Below the pieces are notes generated by a model. That model was not told where the DNA came from. It did not search any database and saw nothing but the letters and a program-made list of their open reading frames with translations. Shown here in pieces: positions 5,029-15,306 of a stretch of 32,000 nucleotides of DNA. Every line of letters begins with the position of its first letter. Position 1 is the stretch's first letter. The position numbers and the translations under genes are program-made. Source of the DNA: Candidatus Saccharimonas sp. (GTDB lineage: Bacteria > Patescibacteriota > Saccharimonadia > Saccharimonadales > Saccharimonadaceae); NCBI GenBank assembly GCA_015256915.3, contig CP076101.2, forward strand, positions 360,001-392,000, given 5' to 3'.

Positions 5029-5466
5029 TTAAGCACCCGCAGGTTTGTTTTCGGTTGGTTTTGGCTCAGTAGTTTTGGCTTTTTCAACCTTTTCAAAGTG
5101 TGCTGATTTTAGTTTATCTTTTAAGGCGTCACCCGCCACAAAACGAACTTTCACACCTTCAATCGAGCTTGCTGTTACACCAGATTCTTTAGCTTGACCT
5201 TTAGATTGAATAGTTGTATGAAAATAACCAAGTTTCCCAAGATGAACACTTTCGCCTCGCTCTAATCGTTTCAAAAGCTCATCTGTTAGTGCTAGCAAAA
5301 CTGCATGCACATCAATATGACTCACCGTAGTTGAGGTTTCTGAAATACTATTAGCGATTTCATCTAGATCAACACGGCCAGATTCAGCTAGTTGAGCGTA
5401 AAACTTTTTTGGCTCTTCTCGTTTTGCAGGGTTTACAAGTTGAACAACTTTATATTTAAGACTCAT
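5029..5466 (-). CDS. HU-like (HU-HIG type) DNA-binding protein
   Basis: 145-aa ORF with a GGAGGA SD. MSLKYKVVQLVNP...FYAQL..SGRVDLDEIA..IS..ST....DV.AVL.AL...L...L..G..V.LG.LG.F resembles the long Bacteroidetes-type HU family. Confidence 0.6.
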   Translation of the reverse strand: MSLKYKVVQLVNPAKREEPKKFYAQLAESGRVDLDEIANSISETSTTVSHIDVHAVLLALTDELLKRLERGESVHLGKLGYFHTTIQSKGQAKESGVTASSIEGVKVRFVAGDALKDKLKSAHFEKVEKAKTTEPKPTENKPAGA

Positions 5467-5731: not shown

Positions 5732-7993
5732 TTACTTATTTACTTTTATACATAATTGCCAATGAGTATTAAAATGATCTATGGCACTATTATCATTAAA
5801 ACACTTTTCTAGTATATTCTTAATATCCTCATTGTTCTTACCTGATATGTCAGTTGTTAAATCAAGAATACTACTATGAGAGTTTGCATTAAAAAGTCTC
5901 TTTGCATCCTTATTTTCCTTATAAAAATCTTTTTTGTTAGTAAAAGATATATAATCCTCTATGATACGCCGTGCCACGTTACACATCAATTCAGGCTTAT
6001 CCATTTTGTATAAGAATCCTAGTTCAAACCAAAGAGATTCATATTGATTTTTAAAATCCTCCTTATCTTTTTGTATTTTTTGTATTTTGGTTTTACCTCC
6101 ATAGGACATAAGCTTATAAAAATTGAATTCTTCATAAGGGTTTATAACACTGCCATCACTCTTTAATTTTCGGCGACATTCATTTTTTATGTCACGAGTA
6201 ATATTTAAATAAAATAATACATTATGTGTTAAGATAAGAATCTTATCTTCTTTTTTAGATTTATTAACCTGCTTAACTAGATCCAGCATCTCGTCAACAA
6301 TTAAGTATTGCATTGTATCATCATTTGAATTCATTGGGTCATCAAATACAATAAATTTGGGTTTATTAGAATTATTTTCTGAATCATCTAGACTTTCAAT
6401 AAAATAAAGAAGCGCAACGATATTTTTTTCACCAGTAGATAGTTCCTGAACTGGTCGAGTTTTTTCTTCACCTTCTATTTTTTCCTTAATTTCATAAAAT
6501 TCTCGACCCTGTTCATCTTTACGTTCAAGCGTAAAATTAGTATATTTTTCTAACTTTTTATTAATATTCTTAGCTAGTATTTCTGTATTTTTAGTTTTTG
6601 ATAATTGTTCATTAATTTTTTCTTGCTTTTCCTTTTGCTCTTTCTCATAATCTTCAATATCATCTTTTACTACTTGGATCTCTTCTTCTTTACCATCTAG
6701 ATCACTAATAGCGCTACTAAGCTCTGTCTTAATTTCTTCTATATTTGAATTCCTAATAATTTCTGCAATAGCATTATAGCGAAGCTTTTTTCTAGCTTTA
6801 GTTTTGTTATCTTTTAGGTTTTTAGTGTATTCGTTGTTTTCTTCAACTATTCCGTTATATTCTTCAATCTCTCCGACCAGTTTAGAAGGTAGTTTTTCTG
6901 ATTCATATGATATAGTATCGAATAAATTCTTTTGTTTTTCCTCTAAAGAGTCTTTAAGTTTTTTCAAGAAGTTCTGCTGTTCAAGTTTATTTTTATCTAC
7001 CTTTAGCAAAATCTCACTAATCGAGTTCTTAAACTCTGGATAAAAAACTTCTTCCTTTATAATGATTTTTTCTAATTTATTTTCATAGTTTTTAATTTCA
7101 ATCAACTTATCGCTAAGCTCTTTAGTGAATTTATCAATTTCACTACCAGAAAAATATTTTTCAAGTTTCTGAAGTCGCTCGTTGGTAACTATATTGCCAC
7201 AAAAAGCACAAGTGTCACCAGCACTATGGCAGTCTTTACCAGCTTCAGCAAATTGGCGTTTTTTATTATCATCGTCTAATTCTGCAATTTTTATGCTTGG
7301 TTGAACTGTTTTTAACAATAGGTTTTCAACATCCTCTTGTAAAACTGCAAAATCGATCTCATCTAAAGAGATTTTTTCTACTTCTGGTTTTGGGGTTGAT
7401 TCTATAGTTTCTTTCAATGTTGCTATCTCTTCATCAGATAGAATAGGACTCTTAAGCGCATCTTCAATTTCACCCTGAAAAGAATTCTTATCGTAACCTG
7501 TTGCCTTCTCAACAATTACAGGGTCTTTCATATTAGCAATTTTGCTTGCACTATTGGAATAGAATTTTTGTTCCTTCTTTTCTTTCTTTTGTTTTTCCTC
7601 TTCTAGTTTAAGCTTTTGTGTATATAAGTTTTCGCTTTCATCTTGCGGTTTGACAATTTTAGCCCTTTCAGCATCTATTTTGCCTTGAATGTCGGCAATC
7701 TCGCTCTCATATTCTTTAATAATCTTATCTATTTTTGTATTTTCTTCGCCAAGAACAATAGCATTTAATTTTTGATCATCACTAATAACAGATTCAAACC
7801 CTTGAAAAATATAAGCATCATATCCGTGCTCACCATTACTATTTTGGCTCCTTATTAAATCACAAATGGATGATTTGCCTGTACCATTCTTACCAAAAAC
7901 AAAATTAACCGACTTATCAAAATTAATCGACTCATCTTCAAATCTACTAAATTTATCATTGCCCGAATCTGTATCTTTTAAATCTACTTTCAT
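5732..7993 (-). CDS. rloC: RloC/PrrC-family ABC ATPase with a coiled-coil/zinc-hook insert and a C-terminal anticodon-nuclease-like domain
   Basis: ATPase motifs: Walker A GKNGTGKSS (7868..7894), signature LSTGEK, Walker B IVFDDP, H-loop LTHN. A long heptad-rich insert has a Cx7CxxC apex (CAFC at 7199..7210). The C-terminus carries ARRIIED (5954..5971) followed 27 aa later by NSH (His codon 5876..5878), which fits the Arg/Glu/His ACNase triad pattern. The preferred start is the ATG at 7993, 4 nt after the upstream stop and preceded by GGAG. The track start at 8035 is a TTG inside the upstream gene. Confidence 0.75.
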   Translation of the reverse strand: MKVDLKDTDSGNDKFSRFEDESINFDKSVNFVFGKNGTGKSSICDLIRSQNSNGEHGYDAYIFQGFESVISDDQKLNAIVLGEENTKIDKIIKEYESEIADIQGKIDAERAKIVKPQDESENLYTQKLKLEEEKQKKEKKEQKFYSNSASKIANMKDPVIVEKATGYDKNSFQGEIEDALKSPILSDEEIATLKETIESTPKPEVEKISLDEIDFAVLQEDVENLLLKTVQPSIKIAELDDDNKKRQFAEAGKDCHSAGDTCAFCGNIVTNERLQKLEKYFSGSEIDKFTKELSDKLIEIKNYENKLEKIIIKEEVFYPEFKNSISEILLKVDKNKLEQQNFLKKLKDSLEEKQKNLFDTISYESEKLPSKLVGEIEEYNGIVEENNEYTKNLKDNKTKARKKLRYNAIAEIIRNSNIEEIKTELSSAISDLDGKEEEIQVVKDDIEDYEKEQKEKQEKINEQLSKTKNTEILAKNINKKLEKYTNFTLERKDEQGREFYEIKEKIEGEEKTRPVQELSTGEKNIVALLYFIESLDDSENNSNKPKFIVFDDPMNSNDDTMQYLIVDEMLDLVKQVNKSKKEDKILILTHNVLFYLNITRDIKNECRRKLKSDGSVINPYEEFNFYKLMSYGGKTKIQKIQKDKEDFKNQYESLWFELGFLYKMDKPELMCNVARRIIEDYISFTNKKDFYKENKDAKRLFNANSHSSILDLTTDISGKNNEDIKNILEKCFNDNSAIDHFNTHWQLCIKVNK

Positions 7994-7997
7994 GTTT

Positions 7998-10900
7998 CTA
8001 TTCCATCTCCCTAACTTTTTCTTCAATGAACGCAATTTCTTTTTCGCTCAAACCGTATTTTTTATAAAGTTGCTGGTCGATTTGAGCAATTGATTGCGAC
8101 CAGTCAATGTCAGAGTTGTTGGTAAAGTTTTGAAGAGGGACGTTACGCCAAGTATCTTTCTTATTGCTTTGCGTGATTTTTAGGGTGCCAAGCATTGTGC
8201 GCGCGAATTTAGTTTTTATGTATTTGAGCAAGTTTTCAGCCTCTTCACGGTTGTCAAAAGCTCCAAAACTTATAAATGTTTGCGTATGCCCGACAAGGGG
8301 TTCCCCGACAAGGGGTTCCCCGACAAGGGGTGTAGAGAGAACTTCGCCTATAGCGCCACTTCCATTGCTTCCAGGCAGCATAACTTTAAATTTTCGAAGA
8401 TTTGGATGCTCTTCGATATATTCAGAATTGATATATCGCCACTTGCGCTTATTTTTTATAACGCCAATAAACTTAAAACTATTTTCAAACTTCTTATTTT
8501 CGGTGAAGATATTATCCAAACTAGTTAGAACGGAGCTTGCAACAGTCTTTTCATGCCCTTTCGAAAGCTTCTCTTTTGCTTCAGGAAAATCTTGATGCAT
8601 TTTTTGAGAGAACTTATAACTATCGGTAGAATAATATAAAGAATCAAGAAAATCACTATTTTTATTTTTTTCAAGAACTTTATGCAAAGCAGAATTAAGC
8701 TCTTCAAAATGTGTAAATGTGCCAATTTTACCAAAGTTCTTCTTGGTGTCACGATAAGTTATAGCTACACCACCTTTAATATCAGTATTCGGGAAGACGT
8801 TACTTGAATCTTGCTCATAATAAGCCACCTTTAAATGTTTATCATTTAGCATTTTGGCGTTCCATTTTTTGGGTGTTTTACCAGCATTAAACAAGAATCT
8901 CGCAGGCGTAATAAAGCACACTTTATCTGCAAACTTATAAGCTTCACTCATAAAATAGTTATAAATTGGCTTATCACTAGTGTCTTTAGTTTCCTCCTGA
9001 TACGGCGGATTTCCAATCACAACATCAAATTTCATATTTAGCGGCTCTCCTTTCTTGAACTGCTCGGTTAAATCTTTCTTTTTTAAGTTCTGGCGAGAGA
9101 TTTCAGGGAATCCGCCATAAATATAGTTGGCTGCAATATCATAAACGATCTGGGTTGGCGCAAAACCAAAGAGCTGGTTTTCAAAAATATGCTTTAATCT
9201 TGCCTGCTCATCTGGAATTATATTTGCTAAACCATGGTTGAGCCTTTTGGCGGTTTCGGTTAGGAACAATCCACTTTTAATATGTAAATCACAAAAAGTA
9301 AGGTTCGGGTTAGAGAAAATCCCTGGGTTTTCAGCTTCGAGTATGTTAAGCATTTTGTTTACAACTTCGCGCGGCGTAAAAATTTGATTGCTTTTTTGCG
9401 CTGGAATGTAGCTAAAAATATCTTCTTTTGTTGTATTGTTCAAATAATCAGCAAGCCGTTCGCGTTTCTTTTCGAACTCTTGAATTGCCGCATTAAAGCG
9501 ATGTTTTTCAAAAAAGCCATCGAAGTGAATAATTTCGCCGTTTTCTTCATAATCACCACCATCACGTAGTTCGATAAAATCAGCTTTCGTAAATCGATCT
9601 GGTGCATGGAGCTTGTCACGTTCATTGAATAGCATTTCAAAATCTTCATCACTCACCGCATCTTGTAGATTATCTATAGTAAGGTTCCTAGGATCTTTTG
9701 CCGCCATCACAAAGCTTGGGATTGCTCGTGAGAATGTTCGGAGCTTTTCACGAATAATATCAAGCTCGGTTTTAGCATTATCTTGATAAGCTTGCTCTTC
9801 ACGATTATCAATCATATCGCGGGGTAGTTCTTTTTCAACAAAATCTGCAAGCTCAGCAATTGCCTTAGTTTTTTCTTTTTCTGTTTGAGGCGAATTTTTA
9901 AATTCTTCACTCACAGTTTTGATTTTCTCTACAATTTTTTCTTCAAGTTCTTTGATTTCCTTCTTACTTGGAGCATAAACTTCAACATATTTAGCAATAG
10001 GTTTGCTCAAAATATCTTCGTTAATTGCATCTGTTAATTGCTCCTCAAAGCTATCCATATCTTCTTGCGCACGCTCAAAAGCCTCACGAATTGGCTCGCC
10101 ATAAACCTTTTGTCCCCAAATAATATCGCGATTAACAGAAATTCTTTTTTGTTTTTGTTCATCTCGCTCACGATTATTGGAAATATCACGTTTTTCTTTT
10201 TTATTTGCCGTGCCATCTTCTTTCGAATTTTGCACTTTATTAAGTTTTTTAACGATTTCACTTGGAAGATTAAAAACATTACCAATATCTTTAAATAGTA
10301 AGTTAGTGATAAACCTACGCTTAACAATATCGCTTGCCATTTTAGCTGCGGGCAAAGTTAATACTTGCGAAGCGTCAAGCTCCACCATTTTACCATTTTC
10401 GTCTTGCGAAAGAACTGGAAAGAAATTGAGAAGTTCTGCCACATTTTCTTGCCGCTCACTTTCTGTAATATTACCAATTGCGCTTTTTTCACTTAAAGAA
10501 TTTGCGAGTTTATCATAAATCTCAAGCACACGATAAGGTGAAAAGTCAAAAACATAAGCCGACTTTTTACGATAAAGTTTGCCGTCTTTTTCATATTTAT
10601 ATGGGTTTTGTGCACGGAATATCGCCTGCGTGTAAAGAGTTTCTTTTTTCACATCACTCATCATTAGTACCGCCGACCATTCTTTAACCGTTACGCCCGT
10701 TGTAAGCTGACCAACCGAAAGTGTAATGGTTTTGTCATATTCTTCTATCGCCTTCCTTACGCGCGCTAAAGCTTTTTCATTCTTTTTAAAATCTTCAGCC
10801 TCCTCTTCAAAGTCTTCATTGTCCAAACTTCGGCCATCGCCGGCTGCTAAAATAATTTTATAATTTTCAAAAACTGGGTGTTTTTTAAGCAGCTTTTCCA

Positions 10901-12236
10901 TTGCTTTTGCTGAATTTACGCGATTTCCTACAAACCAAAAAGTATGCTTTAGCTCATTGCGAAGTTCTGGAGTTGAAAACGGATAACCTTCATTCTCGGT
11001 AAGAGTATTTAAAAATCGCCAAATATCAGCTTCACGCTTAAATTCACCCTTTGAATTGGTTGCCAAAAAATCGTTAAATTCAAAAACTGGTGGAATATTG
11101 TCCCCATTTACATCAATACCTTCTTCGATCTGCTTAGCTGTAACATCTGAAATTTTATAATTAAACAACCTTAAATCCGGCATATCTGTGTGATCGCCCG
11201 ATTCTTGACCATTCTTGAGCTCACTCTGTTTTGTTTTTTGCTCATCGAGATAAGTCCAGTTATAAATTTGTTCACTACTAAACTTACCTTCTGCCAAGGC
11301 TTTAAATGGCGTTCCTGAAAGATGAAGCGTAAATTTGCGTTTAATATTTTCAAAAGCCCTGTCCGTTTTATCAGTATCAACTGCTTCATGGGCTTCATCA
11401 ATCACTAATAAATCCCACTCTAGGTCTGCAACCCACTGCAATTTGTCAAAGCTTCCACCAAAAACTTTTGCACCTTTTAAATCTTGCAAACTCAAAAAAG
11501 TTATTTGTTTTTTACCGAAACCTTCAATTTGATTAAACTCTTCACGAGTTAAGGTTTTCTCTTTAATAGAGTCCGCTGTTGAGATAAAATGATAACCGTC
11601 AATAAATTTCTTATAGTCATTATACCAAGAATCGGCAATTGCTGGACGGTTAGTTACGATTAGAGTTTTTGTTGCTCCAAAGCGTTTCATAAAATCATAA
11701 GTTGTTAACGTTTTGCCGAAACGCGGTTTAGCATTCCATAAGAATTCAGCTTTTTCATTTGGATTTTTAAAATCAGTAGTTTGATTACGTTCAGCATATT
11801 CTAAGGTTTGCTCGACTGCATCTTCTTGCTCTGGTCGTAAAATATAGAATTTCTTGCCATTACTATCTACAAAACGGTCTTGACAAAAAGCTTCAAAAAG
11901 TTCTATCGACCTCTCTGGCGTACCATTAAAATAAAACCATTCAGTTCCATGACCTTTATCTTTCGGAATTGCATTTTGCTGATAATAGCGATGAAGCTCA
12001 TGGTCTTTGAACCATTTATTATTATTTTTTCTTGCAGGTCTAATCCATTTTATATCATAGGGTTCTTTATGTGAAGCGGTCTCGTTTTGTTCACGAATTC
12101 GAATTTTAGCATCTTTTCGCTCAGTATAGCCAATTTTTTGCCAGCCATCATTTTGGTGTCTATCTGGCAAAATATATGAATAAATTTGTGGATAAACTTT
12201 TTTAAATGTTTTGATCTGTTTTTTATCATCACTCAT
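7998..12236 (-). CDS. Single-polypeptide enzyme resembling Type ISP restriction-modification enzymes: T5orf172/GIY-YIG-like head, SF2 translocase, N6-adenine methyltransferase (NPPY), C-terminal target-recognition tail
   Basis: 1412 aa. N-terminus: IYSYIL..GWQKIGYTER..IRIREQN...GTEWFYF (KIGYT at 12123..12137). Helicase motifs: PRFGKT (11709..11726), DEAH (11388..11399), LSGTPF, QAIFRAQNP. Methyltransferase: IFTPREVVNKML, DLHIKSGLFL, VVIGNPPYQEE (NPPY at 9000..9011). The C-terminal tail ends ...HTQTFISFGAF..EEAENLLKYIKTKFARTML...DWS...LYKKYGLSEKEIAFIE, as in Eco57I/TaqI_C-type enzymes. Confidence 0.75.
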   Translation of the reverse strand: MSDDKKQIKTFKKVYPQIYSYILPDRHQNDGWQKIGYTERKDAKIRIREQNETASHKEPYDIKWIRPARKNNNKWFKDHELHRYYQQNAIPKDKGHGTEWFYFNGTPERSIELFEAFCQDRFVDSNGKKFYILRPEQEDAVEQTLEYAERNQTTDFKNPNEKAEFLWNAKPRFGKTLTTYDFMKRFGATKTLIVTNRPAIADSWYNDYKKFIDGYHFISTADSIKEKTLTREEFNQIEGFGKKQITFLSLQDLKGAKVFGGSFDKLQWVADLEWDLLVIDEAHEAVDTDKTDRAFENIKRKFTLHLSGTPFKALAEGKFSSEQIYNWTYLDEQKTKQSELKNGQESGDHTDMPDLRLFNYKISDVTAKQIEEGIDVNGDNIPPVFEFNDFLATNSKGEFKREADIWRFLNTLTENEGYPFSTPELRNELKHTFWFVGNRVNSAKAMEKLLKKHPVFENYKIILAAGDGRSLDNEDFEEEAEDFKKNEKALARVRKAIEEYDKTITLSVGQLTTGVTVKEWSAVLMMSDVKKETLYTQAIFRAQNPYKYEKDGKLYRKKSAYVFDFSPYRVLEIYDKLANSLSEKSAIGNITESERQENVAELLNFFPVLSQDENGKMVELDASQVLTLPAAKMASDIVKRRFITNLLFKDIGNVFNLPSEIVKKLNKVQNSKEDGTANKKEKRDISNNRERDEQKQKRISVNRDIIWGQKVYGEPIREAFERAQEDMDSFEEQLTDAINEDILSKPIAKYVEVYAPSKKEIKELEEKIVEKIKTVSEEFKNSPQTEKEKTKAIAELADFVEKELPRDMIDNREEQAYQDNAKTELDIIREKLRTFSRAIPSFVMAAKDPRNLTIDNLQDAVSDEDFEMLFNERDKLHAPDRFTKADFIELRDGGDYEENGEIIHFDGFFEKHRFNAAIQEFEKKRERLADYLNNTTKEDIFSYIPAQKSNQIFTPREVVNKMLNILEAENPGIFSNPNLTFCDLHIKSGLFLTETAKRLNHGLANIIPDEQARLKHIFENQLFGFAPTQIVYDIAANYIYGGFPEISRQNLKKKDLTEQFKKGEPLNMKFDVVIGNPPYQEETKDTSDKPIYNYFMSEAYKFADKVCFITPARFLFNAGKTPKKWNAKMLNDKHLKVAYYEQDSSNVFPNTDIKGGVAITYRDTKKNFGKIGTFTHFEELNSALHKVLEKNKNSDFLDSLYYSTDSYKFSQKMHQDFPEAKEKLSKGHEKTVASSVLTSLDNIFTENKKFENSFKFIGVIKNKRKWRYINSEYIEEHPNLRKFKVMLPGSNGSGAIGEVLSTPLVGEPLVGEPLVGHTQTFISFGAFDNREEAENLLKYIKTKFARTMLGTLKITQSNKKDTWRNVPLQNFTNNSDIDWSQSIAQIDQQLYKKYGLSEKEIAFIEEKVREME
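8289..8331 (-). repeat. 15-bp in-frame tandem repeat (2.9 copies) encoding (PLVGE)n inside the target-recognition tail
   Basis: Plus-strand unit cccgacaaggggttc at 8289..8303 and 8304..8318, plus a 13-nt partial copy at 8319..8331, all identical. It translates as PLVGEPLVGEPLVG. It is markedly GC-rich and uses GGG/CCC/GTC codons within an AT-rich gene. Confidence 0.95.
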
Positions 12237-12250
12237 CTTAAACTCTCCGA

Positions 12251-13129
12251 TTAATCTTTCTTATTTGCTACTTTTAGCCGTGTTTTCTTAGGTGTAAGTT
12301 TTGACGGCGATGCTCGCATCTGACTCATTACATCTGTTAAGTTTTCAAGGTTTGCAGATTTTATTTTCGAATAAGCTTTTTCAATATCTTGAAGTGAATG
12401 TTCTGAAATTTCGAAAGTCAAATCTTCAAAATTAGGCTTTAGATCGAAGAATTTAAGCTCATTTTTCTGCGTTAAAGTATTGCCAACAATAATATTATTA
12501 CTTAGAATTTTATCAATTGTTTCAAGAAAAAAGAACGAGTTTTTGATATTTTTAATATGCTTATAAATGATTTCTTTTAGGCGTTCACGTGATTCTTCAA
12601 CATTATCCTCTTGAATATCCACCGCATAAACATTTGATATTGCCAAAATTAAACAAAATTCATAAATCTCAACCTGAGCCTTTTTGCTTCTAGCATTCTT
12701 TTGCTTTTTTATTTTCGTATAAAAATCCGGAACCGAATTAAGTTTTCGGTTCAAAATTTCTACAAGAAAATTACCATTTCCACAAGTCGGCTCAAAGACT
12801 TTTTTATCTACTTGAGAAATTGTTGGCTCACATAAATCACACATCTGTTTAACAATGAACTCGGGCGTAAAAACTTCACCAAACTTCTTAACGCGCTTTT
12901 TTGACTTAATTAGATTCTCTTTTTGCTTTTGATTATTTTTAATGGCAGTTTTAGAAGTAGGGCTCATTTTTCTTTTACTAGATTCTTTTAGATTCTTAGT
13001 TGAAATTTTAGATTTTTTAGGATTCAAAGATTTTTGCTCTATTAAGCCGCCACCAAGTGAACCCTTATTGCTCGCAAGGTATTTTTTATTATCTTTTGTT
13101 TTATCCTCCGCATTCTCAGCTCTAGCCAT
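12251..13129 (-). CDS. Truncated N6-adenine-methyltransferase-like protein (motifs X, I, II present; motif IV NPPY replaced by NTLT) with lysine-rich tails
   Basis: 292 aa with FGEVFTPEFIV (motif X), FEPTCGNGNFLVEIL (motif I, 12767..12793) and YAVDIQ (motif II). IIVGNTLT (GNTL at 12473..12484) sits where xxxGNPPY is expected. Only ~75 aa follow, so motifs V-VIII and a TRD are missing. The N-terminal ~85 aa and the C-terminal tail are K/S-rich (SPTSK, SPSK, TPKK). Confidence 0.65.
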   Translation of the reverse strand: MARAENAEDKTKDNKKYLASNKGSLGGGLIEQKSLNPKKSKISTKNLKESSKRKMSPTSKTAIKNNQKQKENLIKSKKRVKKFGEVFTPEFIVKQMCDLCEPTISQVDKKVFEPTCGNGNFLVEILNRKLNSVPDFYTKIKKQKNARSKKAQVEIYEFCLILAISNVYAVDIQEDNVEESRERLKEIIYKHIKNIKNSFFFLETIDKILSNNIIVGNTLTQKNELKFFDLKPNFEDLTFEISEHSLQDIEKAYSKIKSANLENLTDVMSQMRASPSKLTPKKTRLKVANKKD

Positions 13130-13138
13130 AATAATTAT

Positions 13139-13167
13139 ATTTTACCAAATTTATCTATTTTTTGCAA
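13139..13167 (-). promoter_or_regulatory. sigma70-type promoter of the three-gene defence operon
   Basis: On the minus strand: TTGCAA (13162..13167), 17 nt, TAAAAT (13139..13144). Only 9 nt separate the -10 from the ATG at 13129, and there is no SD. Confidence 0.55.
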
Positions 13168-13170
13168 AAC

Positions 13171-13215: not shown

Positions 13216-15306
13216 TTATTTAGCGTTTCGCTTTTCGATAATTTCTTGTGCAACGTTAGGTGGAACTTCTTCGTATTGCGCAAGCTCCATTGTTGAAGCT
13301 GCACGACCTTTACTCATTGAGCGTAGGTCTGAAGTGTAGCCAAACATATTTGCAAGAGGCACAAAACCTTTAACGAGCTTTGTTCCGCCCATCAAATCCT
13401 CCATAGCGTCGATTCGACCGCGGCGTGAGTTCAAGTCTCCGATTACATCACCCATGAATTCTTCAGGAGTTGTAATTTCAACTTTCATCACAGGTTCAAG
13501 AAGAACTGGGTTTGCTTTCTTGATACCTTCACGAGTTGAAAGTGCACCAGCCAATTTAAAGGCCAATTCGCTCGAGTCGACATCGTGGTAAGAACCATCG
13601 TAAAGTGTAGCTTTAACGTCAACTACTGGGTAGCCAGCAATCACACCGCCTTCAAGCGTTTCAAGCACACCTTGTTCAACTGGTTTGCGGTATTCTTGTG
13701 GCACAACACCACCTTTAATTTCATCAAAGAATTCAAAGCCTTTTCCTGGCTCATTTGGCTCAAAACGAATCCAAACATCACCATATTGACCACGACCACC
13801 AGATTGTTTTGCGTGTTTACCTTGAGCTTCAGCAGTTCCACGAATAGTTTCACGGAAGGCAACTTGTGGCTCACCAACATTAGCTTCAACGTTAAATTCA
13901 CGCTTCATTCGGTCGATCAAGATGTCAAGGTGAAGCTCACCCATTCCTGACATAATTGTTTGACCAGTTTCTTCATCTGTGTGAACTCGGAAAGTTGGGT
14001 CTTCTTCAGCAAGTCGTTGAAGAGCAATTCCCATTTTTTCTTGGTCGGCTTTAGTTTTTGGCTCAACCGCAATCGAAACTGGAGGTTCAGCGAACTCAAT
14101 ACCTTCAAGAATTACACCGTGGTTCAAATCACAAAGAGTTGCACCAGTTGTAACATCTTTCAAACCAACAACAGCGGCAATGTCACCAGCAGCAACTTCT
14201 GAAATTTCTTCACGCTTATCAGCATGCATTCGAACGATTCGTCCGATTCGCTCTTTTTTACCAGTCATTGTATTGAGAACATATGATCCAGCAGTAATTT
14301 TACCACTATAAACACGCACGAATACGAGTTTTCCAACAAATGGGTCGGTTGCAATCTTAAATGCAAGTGCAGAAGTTGGTTCATCTACAGACGGTTTACG
14401 CTCAATAGCTTCACCAGTTTTTGCGTCAGTTCCTTTAATCGAAGAAACATCAAGTGGGCTTGGAAGGTAATCATTAATCAAGTCAAGAACTTTTTCAACA
14501 ATCACACCACGGCCATCACCACCAGTTACTAAGAAGAAGTCACCAGCAAGAACTCGTTTTCGAAGCGCAGCTTTAAGTTCAGGAATTGTAATTGATTCCT
14601 CACCTTCTTCGAAGAATCGCATCATCAATTCATCATCAGCTTCAACCGCATTTTCAACAAGCAATGAGCGTGCGTTTTTAGCTTTTTCAAGCATATCTGC
14701 TGGAATTTCACCAACTTTCAACTCATGGTCAGCGTAGTTATCATAAGTGTAAGCTTTCATGTCAATAAGGTCGACAACACCATTAATTTCTTGTTCGAAA
14801 CCAATTGGCAAGTGAATTGGGAAAGCTTGTTTGCTTAGACGGTCATGAATTGATTTAATAGATTTATAGAAGTCACCACCAGTTTGGTTAATTTTGTTGA
14901 TAAAACAAACACGTGGCACGCCATATTTGTCGGCTTGTCGCCAAACAGTTTCAGACTGAGCCTCCACACCCATTTTACCGTCAAAAACAGTCACGGCACC
15001 GTCAAGAACACGAAGTGAACGCTCCACTTCAGCAGTAAAGTCGATGTGTCCTGGGGTGTCGATAATGTTAATTTTGTGATCTTTCCAGAAACAAGTCACA
15101 GCAGCAGAAGTAATTGTAATACCTCGCTCTTTCTCTTGAGCCATCCAGTCGGTTGTTGCACCATCACCTTCACCACGAACAACACCGATTTTGTGTGTCA
15201 AACCAGTTCGGTAAAGAATACCTTCTGTTGTTGTAGTTTTACCGGCATCAATGTGCGCAATAATACCAACATTTCGGAAATTTTCCAATGGAGTATTTTT
15301 ATTCAT
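13216..15306 (-). CDS. fusA: Elongation factor G
   Basis: 696 aa with [25 protein letters not shown], and full-length EF-G domain III-V motifs. An AAGAGGAA SD precedes the start. Confidence 0.97.

Follow-up and report, generated by a model that had tools for sequence, protein, structure and literature searches.

A 1412-residue open reading frame (ORF) in the genome of a Candidatus Saccharimonas sp. raises the question of how its product came to combine the domains of restriction and modification enzymes and, specifically, whether it is a Type ISP enzyme whose nuclease has been exchanged. The ORF lies in the window analyzed here, a stretch of 32,000 nucleotides comprising positions 360,001 to 392,000 of contig CP076101.2 (assembly GCA_015256915.3). 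Its product, L, is predicted to be a single-chain restriction-modification (RM)-type enzyme that carries a cutter, an ATP motor, a methylase, and a site reader in one chain, and the gene is preceded by one encoding a smaller protein, S. Our analysis favors a probable answer: L is an ATP-dependent enzyme that works with S and that originated by fusion of restriction and modification genes, not by exchange of the head of a Type ISP enzyme.

Domain architecture of L

The L gene was taken from a list of ORFs and annotated using Pfam, NCBIfam, and PADLOC. Positions are those of the window. The genes for L and S and the other features listed below are on the minus strand. The features of L are as follows.

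7998..12236, minus strand: large protein L, an uninterrupted ORF of 1412 amino acids with an ATG start; matched by Pfam T5orf172, ResIII, and Eco57I, and by PADLOC
11862..12236, minus strand: T5orf172 (GIY-YIG clan) nuclease-type head, residues 1-125
10167..11843, minus strand: superfamily 2 (SF2) helicase/translocase, residues 132-690; Pfam ResIII and conserved motifs
11709-11717, minus strand: Walker A GKT, residues 174-176
11388-11399, minus strand: DEAH, residues 280-283
Residues 307-310, minus strand: SGTP, a helicase motif
Residues 537-543, minus strand: QxxFRAQ, helicase motif VI
9417..10166, minus strand: linker, residues 691-940; long alpha-helices, then a small beta-hairpin, in the place of the Type ISP coupler
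9036..9416, minus strand: N-half of the methyltransferase (mtN), residues 941-1067; motif X FTPREVV and atypical motifs I and II
8757..9035, minus strand: catalytic C-half of the methyltransferase (mtC), residues 1068-1160, starting MKFDVVIGNPPYQ; Pfam Eco57I, E=4e-21
9000-9011, minus strand: NPPY motif IV, residues 1076-1079
8001..8756, minus strand: target-recognition domain (TRD), residues 1161-1412, the most strain-variable part

The order of domains is thus a T5orf172 head (1-125), an SF2 helicase (132-690), a helical linker, an N6-adenine methyltransferase with an NPPY motif, and a TRD. The initial annotation, made from the DNA letters and an ORF list, had described this ORF and quoted several motif strings from it. 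All are present: IYSY at residues 18-21, KIGYT at 34-38, TEWF at 98-101, FGFAPTQ at 1023-1029, and NPPY at 1076-1079. In scans of the whole protein, Pfam ResIII matched residues 132-311 (E=7e-17), with a weak SNF2 match besides, and the Eco57I methylase family matched residues 1050-1148 (E=4e-21). The NCBIfam scan found no model for the protein. PADLOC matched L to REase_MTase_IIG (E=3.4e-42) through its C-terminal part and helicase, with no contribution from the head, and so classes L with the Type IIG restriction enzyme-methyltransferases.

The motor is well preserved. The motifs GKT, DEAH, SGTP, and VI are invariant in 47 diverse relatives and in close homologs, and the family-invariant residues of the region 132-690 (K175; D280, E281, and H283; G308 and T309; Q537 and R541) all fall within standard SF2 motifs. 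Beyond the motor, an AlphaFold2 model of residues 690-1412, with a mean predicted local distance difference test (pLDDT) score of 88.6, is all helical to about residue 870; beyond this come a hairpin, the complete fold of a methyltransferase, and a C-terminal domain.

The initial annotation had reported no PD-(D/E)xK nuclease upstream of the helicase and had allowed that a cryptic one might turn up elsewhere in L. The first observation holds, as the head ends at about residue 125 and the helicase begins at residue 132, leaving no space for such a domain. The second possibility was pursued using the domain libraries and the partial model, and no such domain was found: L has no PD-(D/E)xK match in Pfam, NCBIfam, or PADLOC, and the model of residues 690-1412 contains only helices, the methyltransferase fold, and the TRD. 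From the helicase region, residues 132-690, a PD-(D/E)xK domain appears to be excluded on the basis of sequence.

Gene layouts in the family and origin of the single chain

To place L among its relatives, residues 1-1200 were searched against 1.84 billion cluster representatives at E<=1e-30. The search returned a family of 840 proteins, each representing a 50%-identity cluster. The T5orf172 head was found in 114 of the 115 representatives with a complete N-terminus, in 87 by BLAST and in 27 more using a hidden Markov model (HMM) of the head. Given this distribution, the head is predicted to be ancestral in the family. A Pfam scan of seven divergent or headless relatives revealed no other nuclease head of the PD-(D/E)xK, HNH, or PLD kind.

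A survey limited to one genome per species returned 78 loci. These came from Saccharibacteria, Bacillota, Actinomycetota, Bacteroidota, Pseudomonadota, Spirochaetota, Chloroflexota, Cyanobacteria, Planctomycetota, and Verrucomicrobiota, as well as from one Woesearchaeota bin. Mapping of domain HMMs onto the loci identified 65 complete ones and the following layouts.

Fused single chain: 24 loci, 22 with S
Separate methylase (mtN-mtC) and separate T5orf172-helicase-linker protein: 35 loci, 34 with S
Split inside the methyltransferase (head-helicase-linker-mtN and a separate NPPY/TRD protein): 6 loci, 6 with S
Incomplete: 12 loci

The head and helicase belong to one protein at every one of the 65 complete loci. 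The split loci locate the junction of the single chain. Thus, in the split relative L007, a separate protein of 334 residues starts MKFDVIIGNPPYQ, and Met1068 of L stands at exactly that junction (MKFDVVIGNPPYQ), where the separate gene of split relatives has its start codon. Met1068 therefore appears to mark the fusion point. The PADLOC model MTase_II PDLC03375 (348 positions) likewise corresponds to the C-half of L. The series of three-gene, split, and fused layouts argues for assembly of the single chain through gene fusion inside the family. Most likely, the genes for restriction and modification proteins fused within a distinct family, and the product converged on the Type ISP layout.

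The T5orf172 head

The first ~115 residues had been read as a T5orf172/GIY-YIG-like domain, with the suggestion that the N-terminus be aligned to the T5orf172 profile and that its predicted structure be compared with GIY-YIG folds. The isolated head (residues 1-131) matched Pfam T5orf172 (PF10544) with 27.1 bits (E=6e-6; gathering cut-off, 20) and MUG113 with 24.3 bits (E=4.8e-5; cut-off, 22.3). Within whole L, the T5orf172 match is marginal, covering residues 19-104 with 20.6 bits against the cut-off of 20 (E=6.4e-4). The same Pfam family was matched by 53 of 70 diverse family heads. With Pfam scores above the gathering threshold, the predicted fold, and conserved Tyr, Arg, and Glu residues, the match is not due to chance, and the assignment of the head to T5orf172 is solid.

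Conservation was evaluated using 116 aligned heads, taken from the representatives of clusters at 50% identity.

Y19, 115/116; K34, 115/116; G36, 116/116; R46, 111/116
D78, 115/116; H82, 109/116; E99, 114/116; W100, 110/116

These residues are unaltered in 114 close Saccharibacteria homologs except for a single D78N; Y19, R46, and E99 are invariant.

An AlphaFold2 model of the head, built from a 70-sequence alignment, had a pLDDT of 89.2 and the topology beta-beta-alpha-beta-alpha-(beta)-alpha. Its elements are strands at residues 17-22, 32-38, 61-67, and 100-102, and helices at residues 43-53, 78-87, and 107-119. Y19 and K34-G36 are on the first hairpin, R46 is on the first helix, and E99 lies ahead of the last helix. 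This placement is that of the GIY-YIG arrangement. The active site is nevertheless a variant one: Lys34 replaces the second Tyr, and Gln50, four residues after Arg46, stands where most GIY-YIG domains have His or Tyr. A Lys in place of the second Tyr (KIG for YIG) is found in Hpy188I as well.

Structural comparison of the head bore out one part of the proposal. In a Foldseek search of predicted viral structures (BFVD), the best matches of the model were T5orf172-domain proteins, with a probability of 1.00, E-values of 3e-4 to 7e-3, and a template modeling (TM) score of about 0.5. The other part, a match to a solved GIY-YIG fold, was not obtained, and a search of PDB sequences with the head profile gave chance-level matches only. 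A function for the domain is suggested by the T5orf172 protein Odn (Gp88) of phage ICP1, which cuts DNA in vitro and is inactivated by the substitution E180A at the conserved Glu (PMC8263062).

The methyltransferase of L and the partner protein S

The model of residues 690-1412 was compared with solved structures, among which the following proteins ranked highest.

CamA, E=6e-13
LlaBIII, E=5e-9
M.BseCI, E=1.2e-8
LlaGI, E=3.5e-8

BrxX/PglX and DrdV came next, and the strong matches are all methyltransferases with recognition domains. At the level of sequence, searches of the PDB using phmmer with whole L and using a 47-sequence family profile recovered only DrdV (1.4e-5) and a PglX-type methylase (3.5e-4), and found no Type ISP, HsdR, or nuclease relatives.

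Among the features of a gamma-class N6-adenine methyltransferase, L has motif IV and a complete Rossmann-like fold with a TRD; it lacks the usual S-adenosylmethionine (SAM)-binding motifs. The NPPY of motif IV is invariant in diverse relatives and close homologs. Motifs I and II were assigned from residue alignments to DrdV and PglX/BrxX. In motif I, DLHIKSG, Lys987 occupies the usual position of the first Gly. In motif II, FGFAPTQ, Ala1026 aligns with the Asp of PglX/BrxX, and its counterpart in the family's separate methylases is an Ala that aligns alike opposite the motif II acid. The initial annotation had remarked on the missing motif II acid and questioned the methylation competence of L. 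The residue is indeed absent, family-wide, and the doubt is justified by both Lys987 and Ala1026. The family-wide consensus is DxYxKSGLY for motif I and YGxAPT for motif II, and both features are invariant in close homologs. The atypical motifs are thus best described as a conserved peculiarity, as judged from these alignments, and not as decay.

The stand-alone methylases of the three-gene loci (e.g., L023:4004-5458) contain, in the stretch separating motif II from motif IV, a conserved insertion with Cys residues (GKCxYCGA...). This insertion, which may be a zinc-binding element, is absent from the L of the window.

The initial annotation was silent on the conserved protein encoded upstream, which bears on the question of methylation. 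Its gene and a possible promoter are as follows.

12251..13129, minus strand: partner protein S, 292 amino acids, truncated methyltransferase-like; ends 14 nucleotides upstream of L
13139..13168, minus strand: promoter-like site, TTGCAA, 17 nucleotides, TAAAAT, with TG; a consensus match only

The promoter-like site, identified using a consensus scan and reading of the sequence, lies just upstream of S and beyond the terminator hairpin of the EF-G gene. It is the probable start of an operon headed by S.

The Pfam N6_Mtase match of S is confined to the first third of the profile (positions 20-107). The protein shares homology with Type I methylases over their motif X-I region, and cross-matches of domain HMMs reveal weak homology to the N-half of the L methyltransferase. 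Its N-terminal tail is rich in Lys and Ser. Motifs X (GEVFTPE), I (EPTCGNGNFL), and II (YAVD) are intact, and motif IV is degenerate (GNTLT, without PPY). The same pattern holds across 68 aligned S proteins, in which EVFTP, LEPxCG(E/D)G(N/P)F, and YG(I/V)(E/D) are conserved and motif IV has become (D/N)(A/G/T)L. S has therefore kept its SAM-binding motifs and lost NPPY, the reverse of the pattern in L.

The association of the two proteins extends well beyond the window. S is present in 62 of the 65 complete loci, across many phyla. It adjoins L upstream in related Saccharibacteria at a different chromosomal site and is found upstream of L on Enterococcus and Pediococcus plasmids. In two loci, S is fused to the NPPY/TRD half (L015:3092-5059 in a split locus and L019:3014-5032 in an incomplete one) and the atypical mtN stays on the helicase protein. 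These fusions show shuffling of the three methyltransferase pieces as separate modules. Based on its motifs, S is most likely a SAM-binding, non-catalytic partner.

Strain variation and mobility

Window L was compared with 114 close Saccharibacteria homologs. The mean identities by domain were as follows.

Head, 0.93; helicase, 0.96; linker, 0.95; mtN, 0.95; TRD, 0.68 (minimum, 0.22)

In some homologs, the C-terminal fifth is wholly different, which suggests exchange of specificity domains between strains. A hypervariable TRD in a protein that is otherwise 93-96% identical fits a working restriction system. The TRD also contains a short repeat.

8289..8331, minus strand: tandem repeat (Tandem Repeats Finder), a perfect 15-bp unit in 2.9 copies that encodes (PLVGE)n in the TRD

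The repeat falls in a low-confidence loop (pLDDT<50, model residues 610-616) and comprises one to five of the five-residue units among related strains. It recalls the TAEL repeat that alters the spacer length recognized by EcoR124I/II, a likeness that does not imply an effect on specificity here.

Some related strains carry frameshift alleles that destroy the motor and spare the methylase ORF. In L086:6001-10253, a 2-bp GC insertion just before Walker A (at about window position 11745) yields a 177-residue ORF for the T5orf172 head and a 1234-residue ORF without GKT; the methylase part is intact. This pattern looks like a loss of restriction in which the methylase was kept. Phase variation was considered as a source of these alleles and rejected, as the mutation in L086, a 2-bp GC insertion, does not affect a repeat tract.

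The module is mobile, as its chromosomal location differs among related Saccharibacteria and it is also plasmid-borne: full-length homologs with 40-46% identity occur in 92 plasmid records, chiefly of Enterococcus, Lactococcus, Pediococcus, and Lactobacillus, and are annotated beside an "N-6 DNA methylase." These records include 23 conjugative and 23 mobilizable plasmids as well as the 10-kb pRS5.

Relation to characterized systems

To our knowledge, the characterized ATP-dependent translocating restriction enzymes (Types I, ISP, and III) all cut with PD-(D/E)xK domains, in agreement with PMC3874165. Type ISP enzymes are defined as single polypeptides comprising an N-terminal Mrr-like PD-(D/E)xK nuclease, a helicase-like ATPase, a methyltransferase, and a TRD (PMC3874165), a layout likewise defined in PMC4666363, and are described by a translocation-collision scheme (PMC3553950, PMC4666363). 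L has the same order of nuclease, SF2 ATPase, linker or coupler, gamma-class N6-adenine methyltransferase, and C-terminal TRD, and its methyltransferase/TRD fold is similar to those of LlaBIII and LlaGI. It differs in having a T5orf172 domain in place of the Mrr-type PD-(D/E)xK (PD-QxK) nuclease, in its atypical motifs I and II, in the conserved second protein S, and in the multi-gene forms of its family. Moreover, L has no detectable sequence homology to LlaGI or LlaBIII, and the entries 4xqk and 5ffj were not recovered among PDB sequences. Overall, L is predicted to have a Type ISP-like working layout and not to be a member of the Type ISP family.

The nearest published analogue is the cluster of YeeA/DnmA, YeeB, and YeeC, named DnmA-YeeB-YeeC in PMC9973331. 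Morgan et al. (2009) drew attention to nuclease-free methylases of the MmeI type that have a DEAD helicase and a GIY-YIG protein on their flanks, and suggested that the proteins together form an RM-like system with single-strand modification (PMC2731913). Vibrio homologs of these proteins affect phage sensitivity (cited in PMC9973331). Both the cluster and the L family bring together the same three activities, those of a TRD-bearing N6-adenine methyltransferase, of an SF2 helicase, and of a T5orf172/GIY-YIG protein. As described, the cluster comprises three separate proteins, whereas the head is fused N-terminally to the helicase in the L family. In addition, DnmA is MmeI-like, whereas L is Eco57I/CamA-like with no Pfam MmeI_Mtase match, and only the L family has S.

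As for the head, it keeps the Tyr, Arg, and Glu positions of Odn/Gp88 and of the GIY-YIG enzymes Eco29kI, Hpy188I, and Cfr42I. Those enzymes owe their specificity to DNA-binding parts of their own and use no ATP, whereas the head of L is tethered to a motor and to a methyltransferase/TRD. The three-gene relatives of L in turn resemble Type III systems (Mod and Res) in combining a separate methylase that has a TRD with a nuclease-helicase that matches Pfam ResIII. The nuclease of Type III Res is a C-terminal PD-(D/E)xK domain; the L family differs in its N-terminal T5orf172 domain and extra S, and the version in the window is fused in one chain. A GIY-YIG domain inserted in a putative HsdR has been reported (Dunin-Horkawicz et al., 2006; PMC1564403). 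Literature searches covering T5orf172/GIY-YIG with helicase and methyltransferase, Type ISP enzymes, the lactococcal plasmidome, and RM in Saccharibacteria found no published description of the L architecture. The system is, apparently, a widespread and unstudied variant among the ATP-dependent RM enzymes.

Proposed mechanism and alternative explanations

In the mechanism that we propose, the TRD and methyltransferase of L would recognize a short, asymmetric sequence, whose target adenine would be probed in the NPPY pocket. N6-methyladenine would protect host sites. An unmethylated site would license ATP hydrolysis, and the motor would move L along the DNA or reel the DNA in. The T5orf172 domain would then nick a single strand per event, since a GIY-YIG domain has one active site. 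Breaking both strands would take two L molecules or repeated nicking, in line with the collision model for Type ISP enzymes; by analogy, one-strand-at-a-time cutting by a GIY-YIG-type head would probably fit that mechanism. S would serve the methyltransferase module as a SAM-binding, non-catalytic partner, with a part in assembly, in SAM dependence, or in controlling whether restriction or methylation takes place.

Several points weigh against this account. The assignment of the head as a nuclease is drawn from Pfam family and clan membership and from analogy with one characterized T5orf172 enzyme, Odn. In the Foldseek search of the PDB, nothing matched the head model at E<0.7, including any solved GIY-YIG nuclease, and an hhalign comparison of the head profile with the I-TevI catalytic domain gave no match in what is a low-power test with a single-sequence template. 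Headless helicase-methylase relatives exist (L087:4538-8309 and L088:409-4228), with a short S of 156-159 residues and no separate T5orf172 gene directly upstream; because they keep S, the nuclease may be dispensable for some function of the module. In L, neither the acid of motif II nor the first Gly of motif I is present, so that SAM binding and methylation by L are predicted at most. Finally, no restriction by the DnmA-YeeB-YeeC cluster was found in B. subtilis (PMC9973331), and the literature searched contained no biochemical study of any member of the L family.

The best-surviving alternative, which we nonetheless regard as rather unlikely, is that the L methyltransferase is a site reader or base-flipping sensor that cannot bind SAM alone; methylation would then need S, in a composite or allosteric arrangement, or be absent altogether, and without methylation the system might follow a different rule in targeting DNA. 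The complementary, conserved degeneracy of the two proteins fits this proposal: L has NPPY together with the motif I Lys and motif II Ala, and S has canonical motifs X, I, and II with (D/N)(A/G/T)L in place of (D/N)PP(Y/F). The presence of S in nearly all complete loci and its fusion to the NPPY half in L015 and L019 point the same way. Against this, the altered motifs of L are under strong purifying selection, with K987 and G989 invariant or nearly so and APT conserved, which suggests a working, if unusual, cofactor pocket in L. In addition, AlphaFold2 gives a complete methyltransferase fold for L alone, and S keeps its own beta-4-like segment, which makes simple strand complementation unlikely.

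A related and bolder proposal, more speculative still, is that S and L constitute a distinct, unnamed type of ATP-dependent RM system. Here, a motor-tethered GIY-YIG-type nuclease would be combined with methylation or self-recognition by two complementary, incomplete methyltransferase modules. S would bind SAM and be unable to hold the adenine; L would hold the adenine in its NPPY pocket and have a non-canonical cofactor pocket. S would thus be an obligatory cofactor-delivering or SAM-sensing switch subunit.

It is improbable that the head is a DNA-binding or regulatory module and that S and L act by a route other than cleavage, such as motor-coupled epigenetic methylation or BREX-like exclusion. 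T5orf172 has historically been annotated as DNA-binding, as in the UniProt names of the BFVD matches. The failure of the head to match a solved nuclease and the headless relatives, which keep S, helicase, and methylase, are also consistent with such a role, and the DnmA cluster acts as an orphan methylase in B. subtilis (PMC9973331). However, the equivalents of the GIY-YIG catalytic Tyr, Arg, and Glu are conserved family-wide and in the 114 close homologs, and the equivalent Glu is essential for cleavage by Odn (PMC8263062). Further, the methylase-sparing frameshift alleles resemble loss of a toxic restriction function.

Another alternative is the proposal of the initial annotation that the cleavage module had been swapped on a Type ISP enzyme. 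We consider it highly improbable that L is a relative of LlaGI and LlaBIII in which T5orf172 replaced an Mrr-type PD-(D/E)xK head. One part of that proposal stands: L is a single chain with the Type ISP order of domains, as published (PMC3874165), and with T5orf172 in the place of the nuclease. The C-terminal two-thirds of the model also align structurally with LlaBIII and LlaGI. What is not supported is the swap itself. Neither phmmer nor the 47-sequence profile linked L to LlaGI or LlaBIII in the PDB, where only DrdV and the PglX-type methylase were significant, and CamA is structurally closer than LlaBIII. With the head in 114 of 115 representatives, no PD-(D/E)xK-headed relative was seen, and the relatives examined had no other nuclease domain. 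The T5orf172-helicase is a protein separate from the methylase in 35 of the 65 complete loci, and S has no counterpart in Type ISP enzymes.

The weakest alternative, which we find barely credible, is that L serves mobile elements in anti-restriction or establishment, as a helicase-methylase that shields incoming plasmid DNA in the manner of P1 DarB: the conjugative and mobilizable plasmids among the 92 records are in its favor, and against it are the chromosomal location in Saccharibacteria and many other genomes, the nuclease-type head, the strain-level TRD swapping typical of sequence-specific RM enzymes, and the PADLOC class of Type IIG.

If the preferred account of a fused RM-type enzyme working with S is correct, the family adds a single-active-site GIY-YIG-type nuclease coupled to a motor, and the coordination of nicks into double-strand breaks becomes testable. 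The range of three-gene, split, and fused forms found in nature, with its junction at Met1068, would document the stepwise assembly of single-chain restriction enzymes. The complementary motif loss in the S/L pair poses a testable question about SAM binding or sensing, and the modular, hypervariable TRD is a possible source of new specificities. Given its wide spread, in Enterococcus, Lactococcus, and Pediococcus plasmids and in human oral Saccharibacteria, the system may affect phage resistance, plasmid flow, and genetic tractability.

Neighboring genes

The next genes on the same strand are as follows.

5732-8035, minus strand: AAA_13 ATPase gene, directly downstream of L; Pfam E=3e-99; likely true start at 7993
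5029-5466, minus strand: gene for an HU-HIG family DNA-binding protein, next after the AAA_13 gene; Pfam E=1.4e-34

The block formed by S, L, and the AAA_13 gene lies between the HU-HIG gene and the EF-G gene (13216-15306), and thus inside a housekeeping region. PADLOC matched the AAA_13 gene to the candidate system PDC-S06 (E=1e-217). We considered this gene as a part of the S/L system and rejected it, as related Saccharibacteria carry S and L elsewhere without AAA_13. The C-terminal part of the AAA_13 protein carries RRIIE...NANSH, which we take to resemble the Arg-Glu-His motif of the PrrC/RloC anticodon nucleases, companions of restriction systems.

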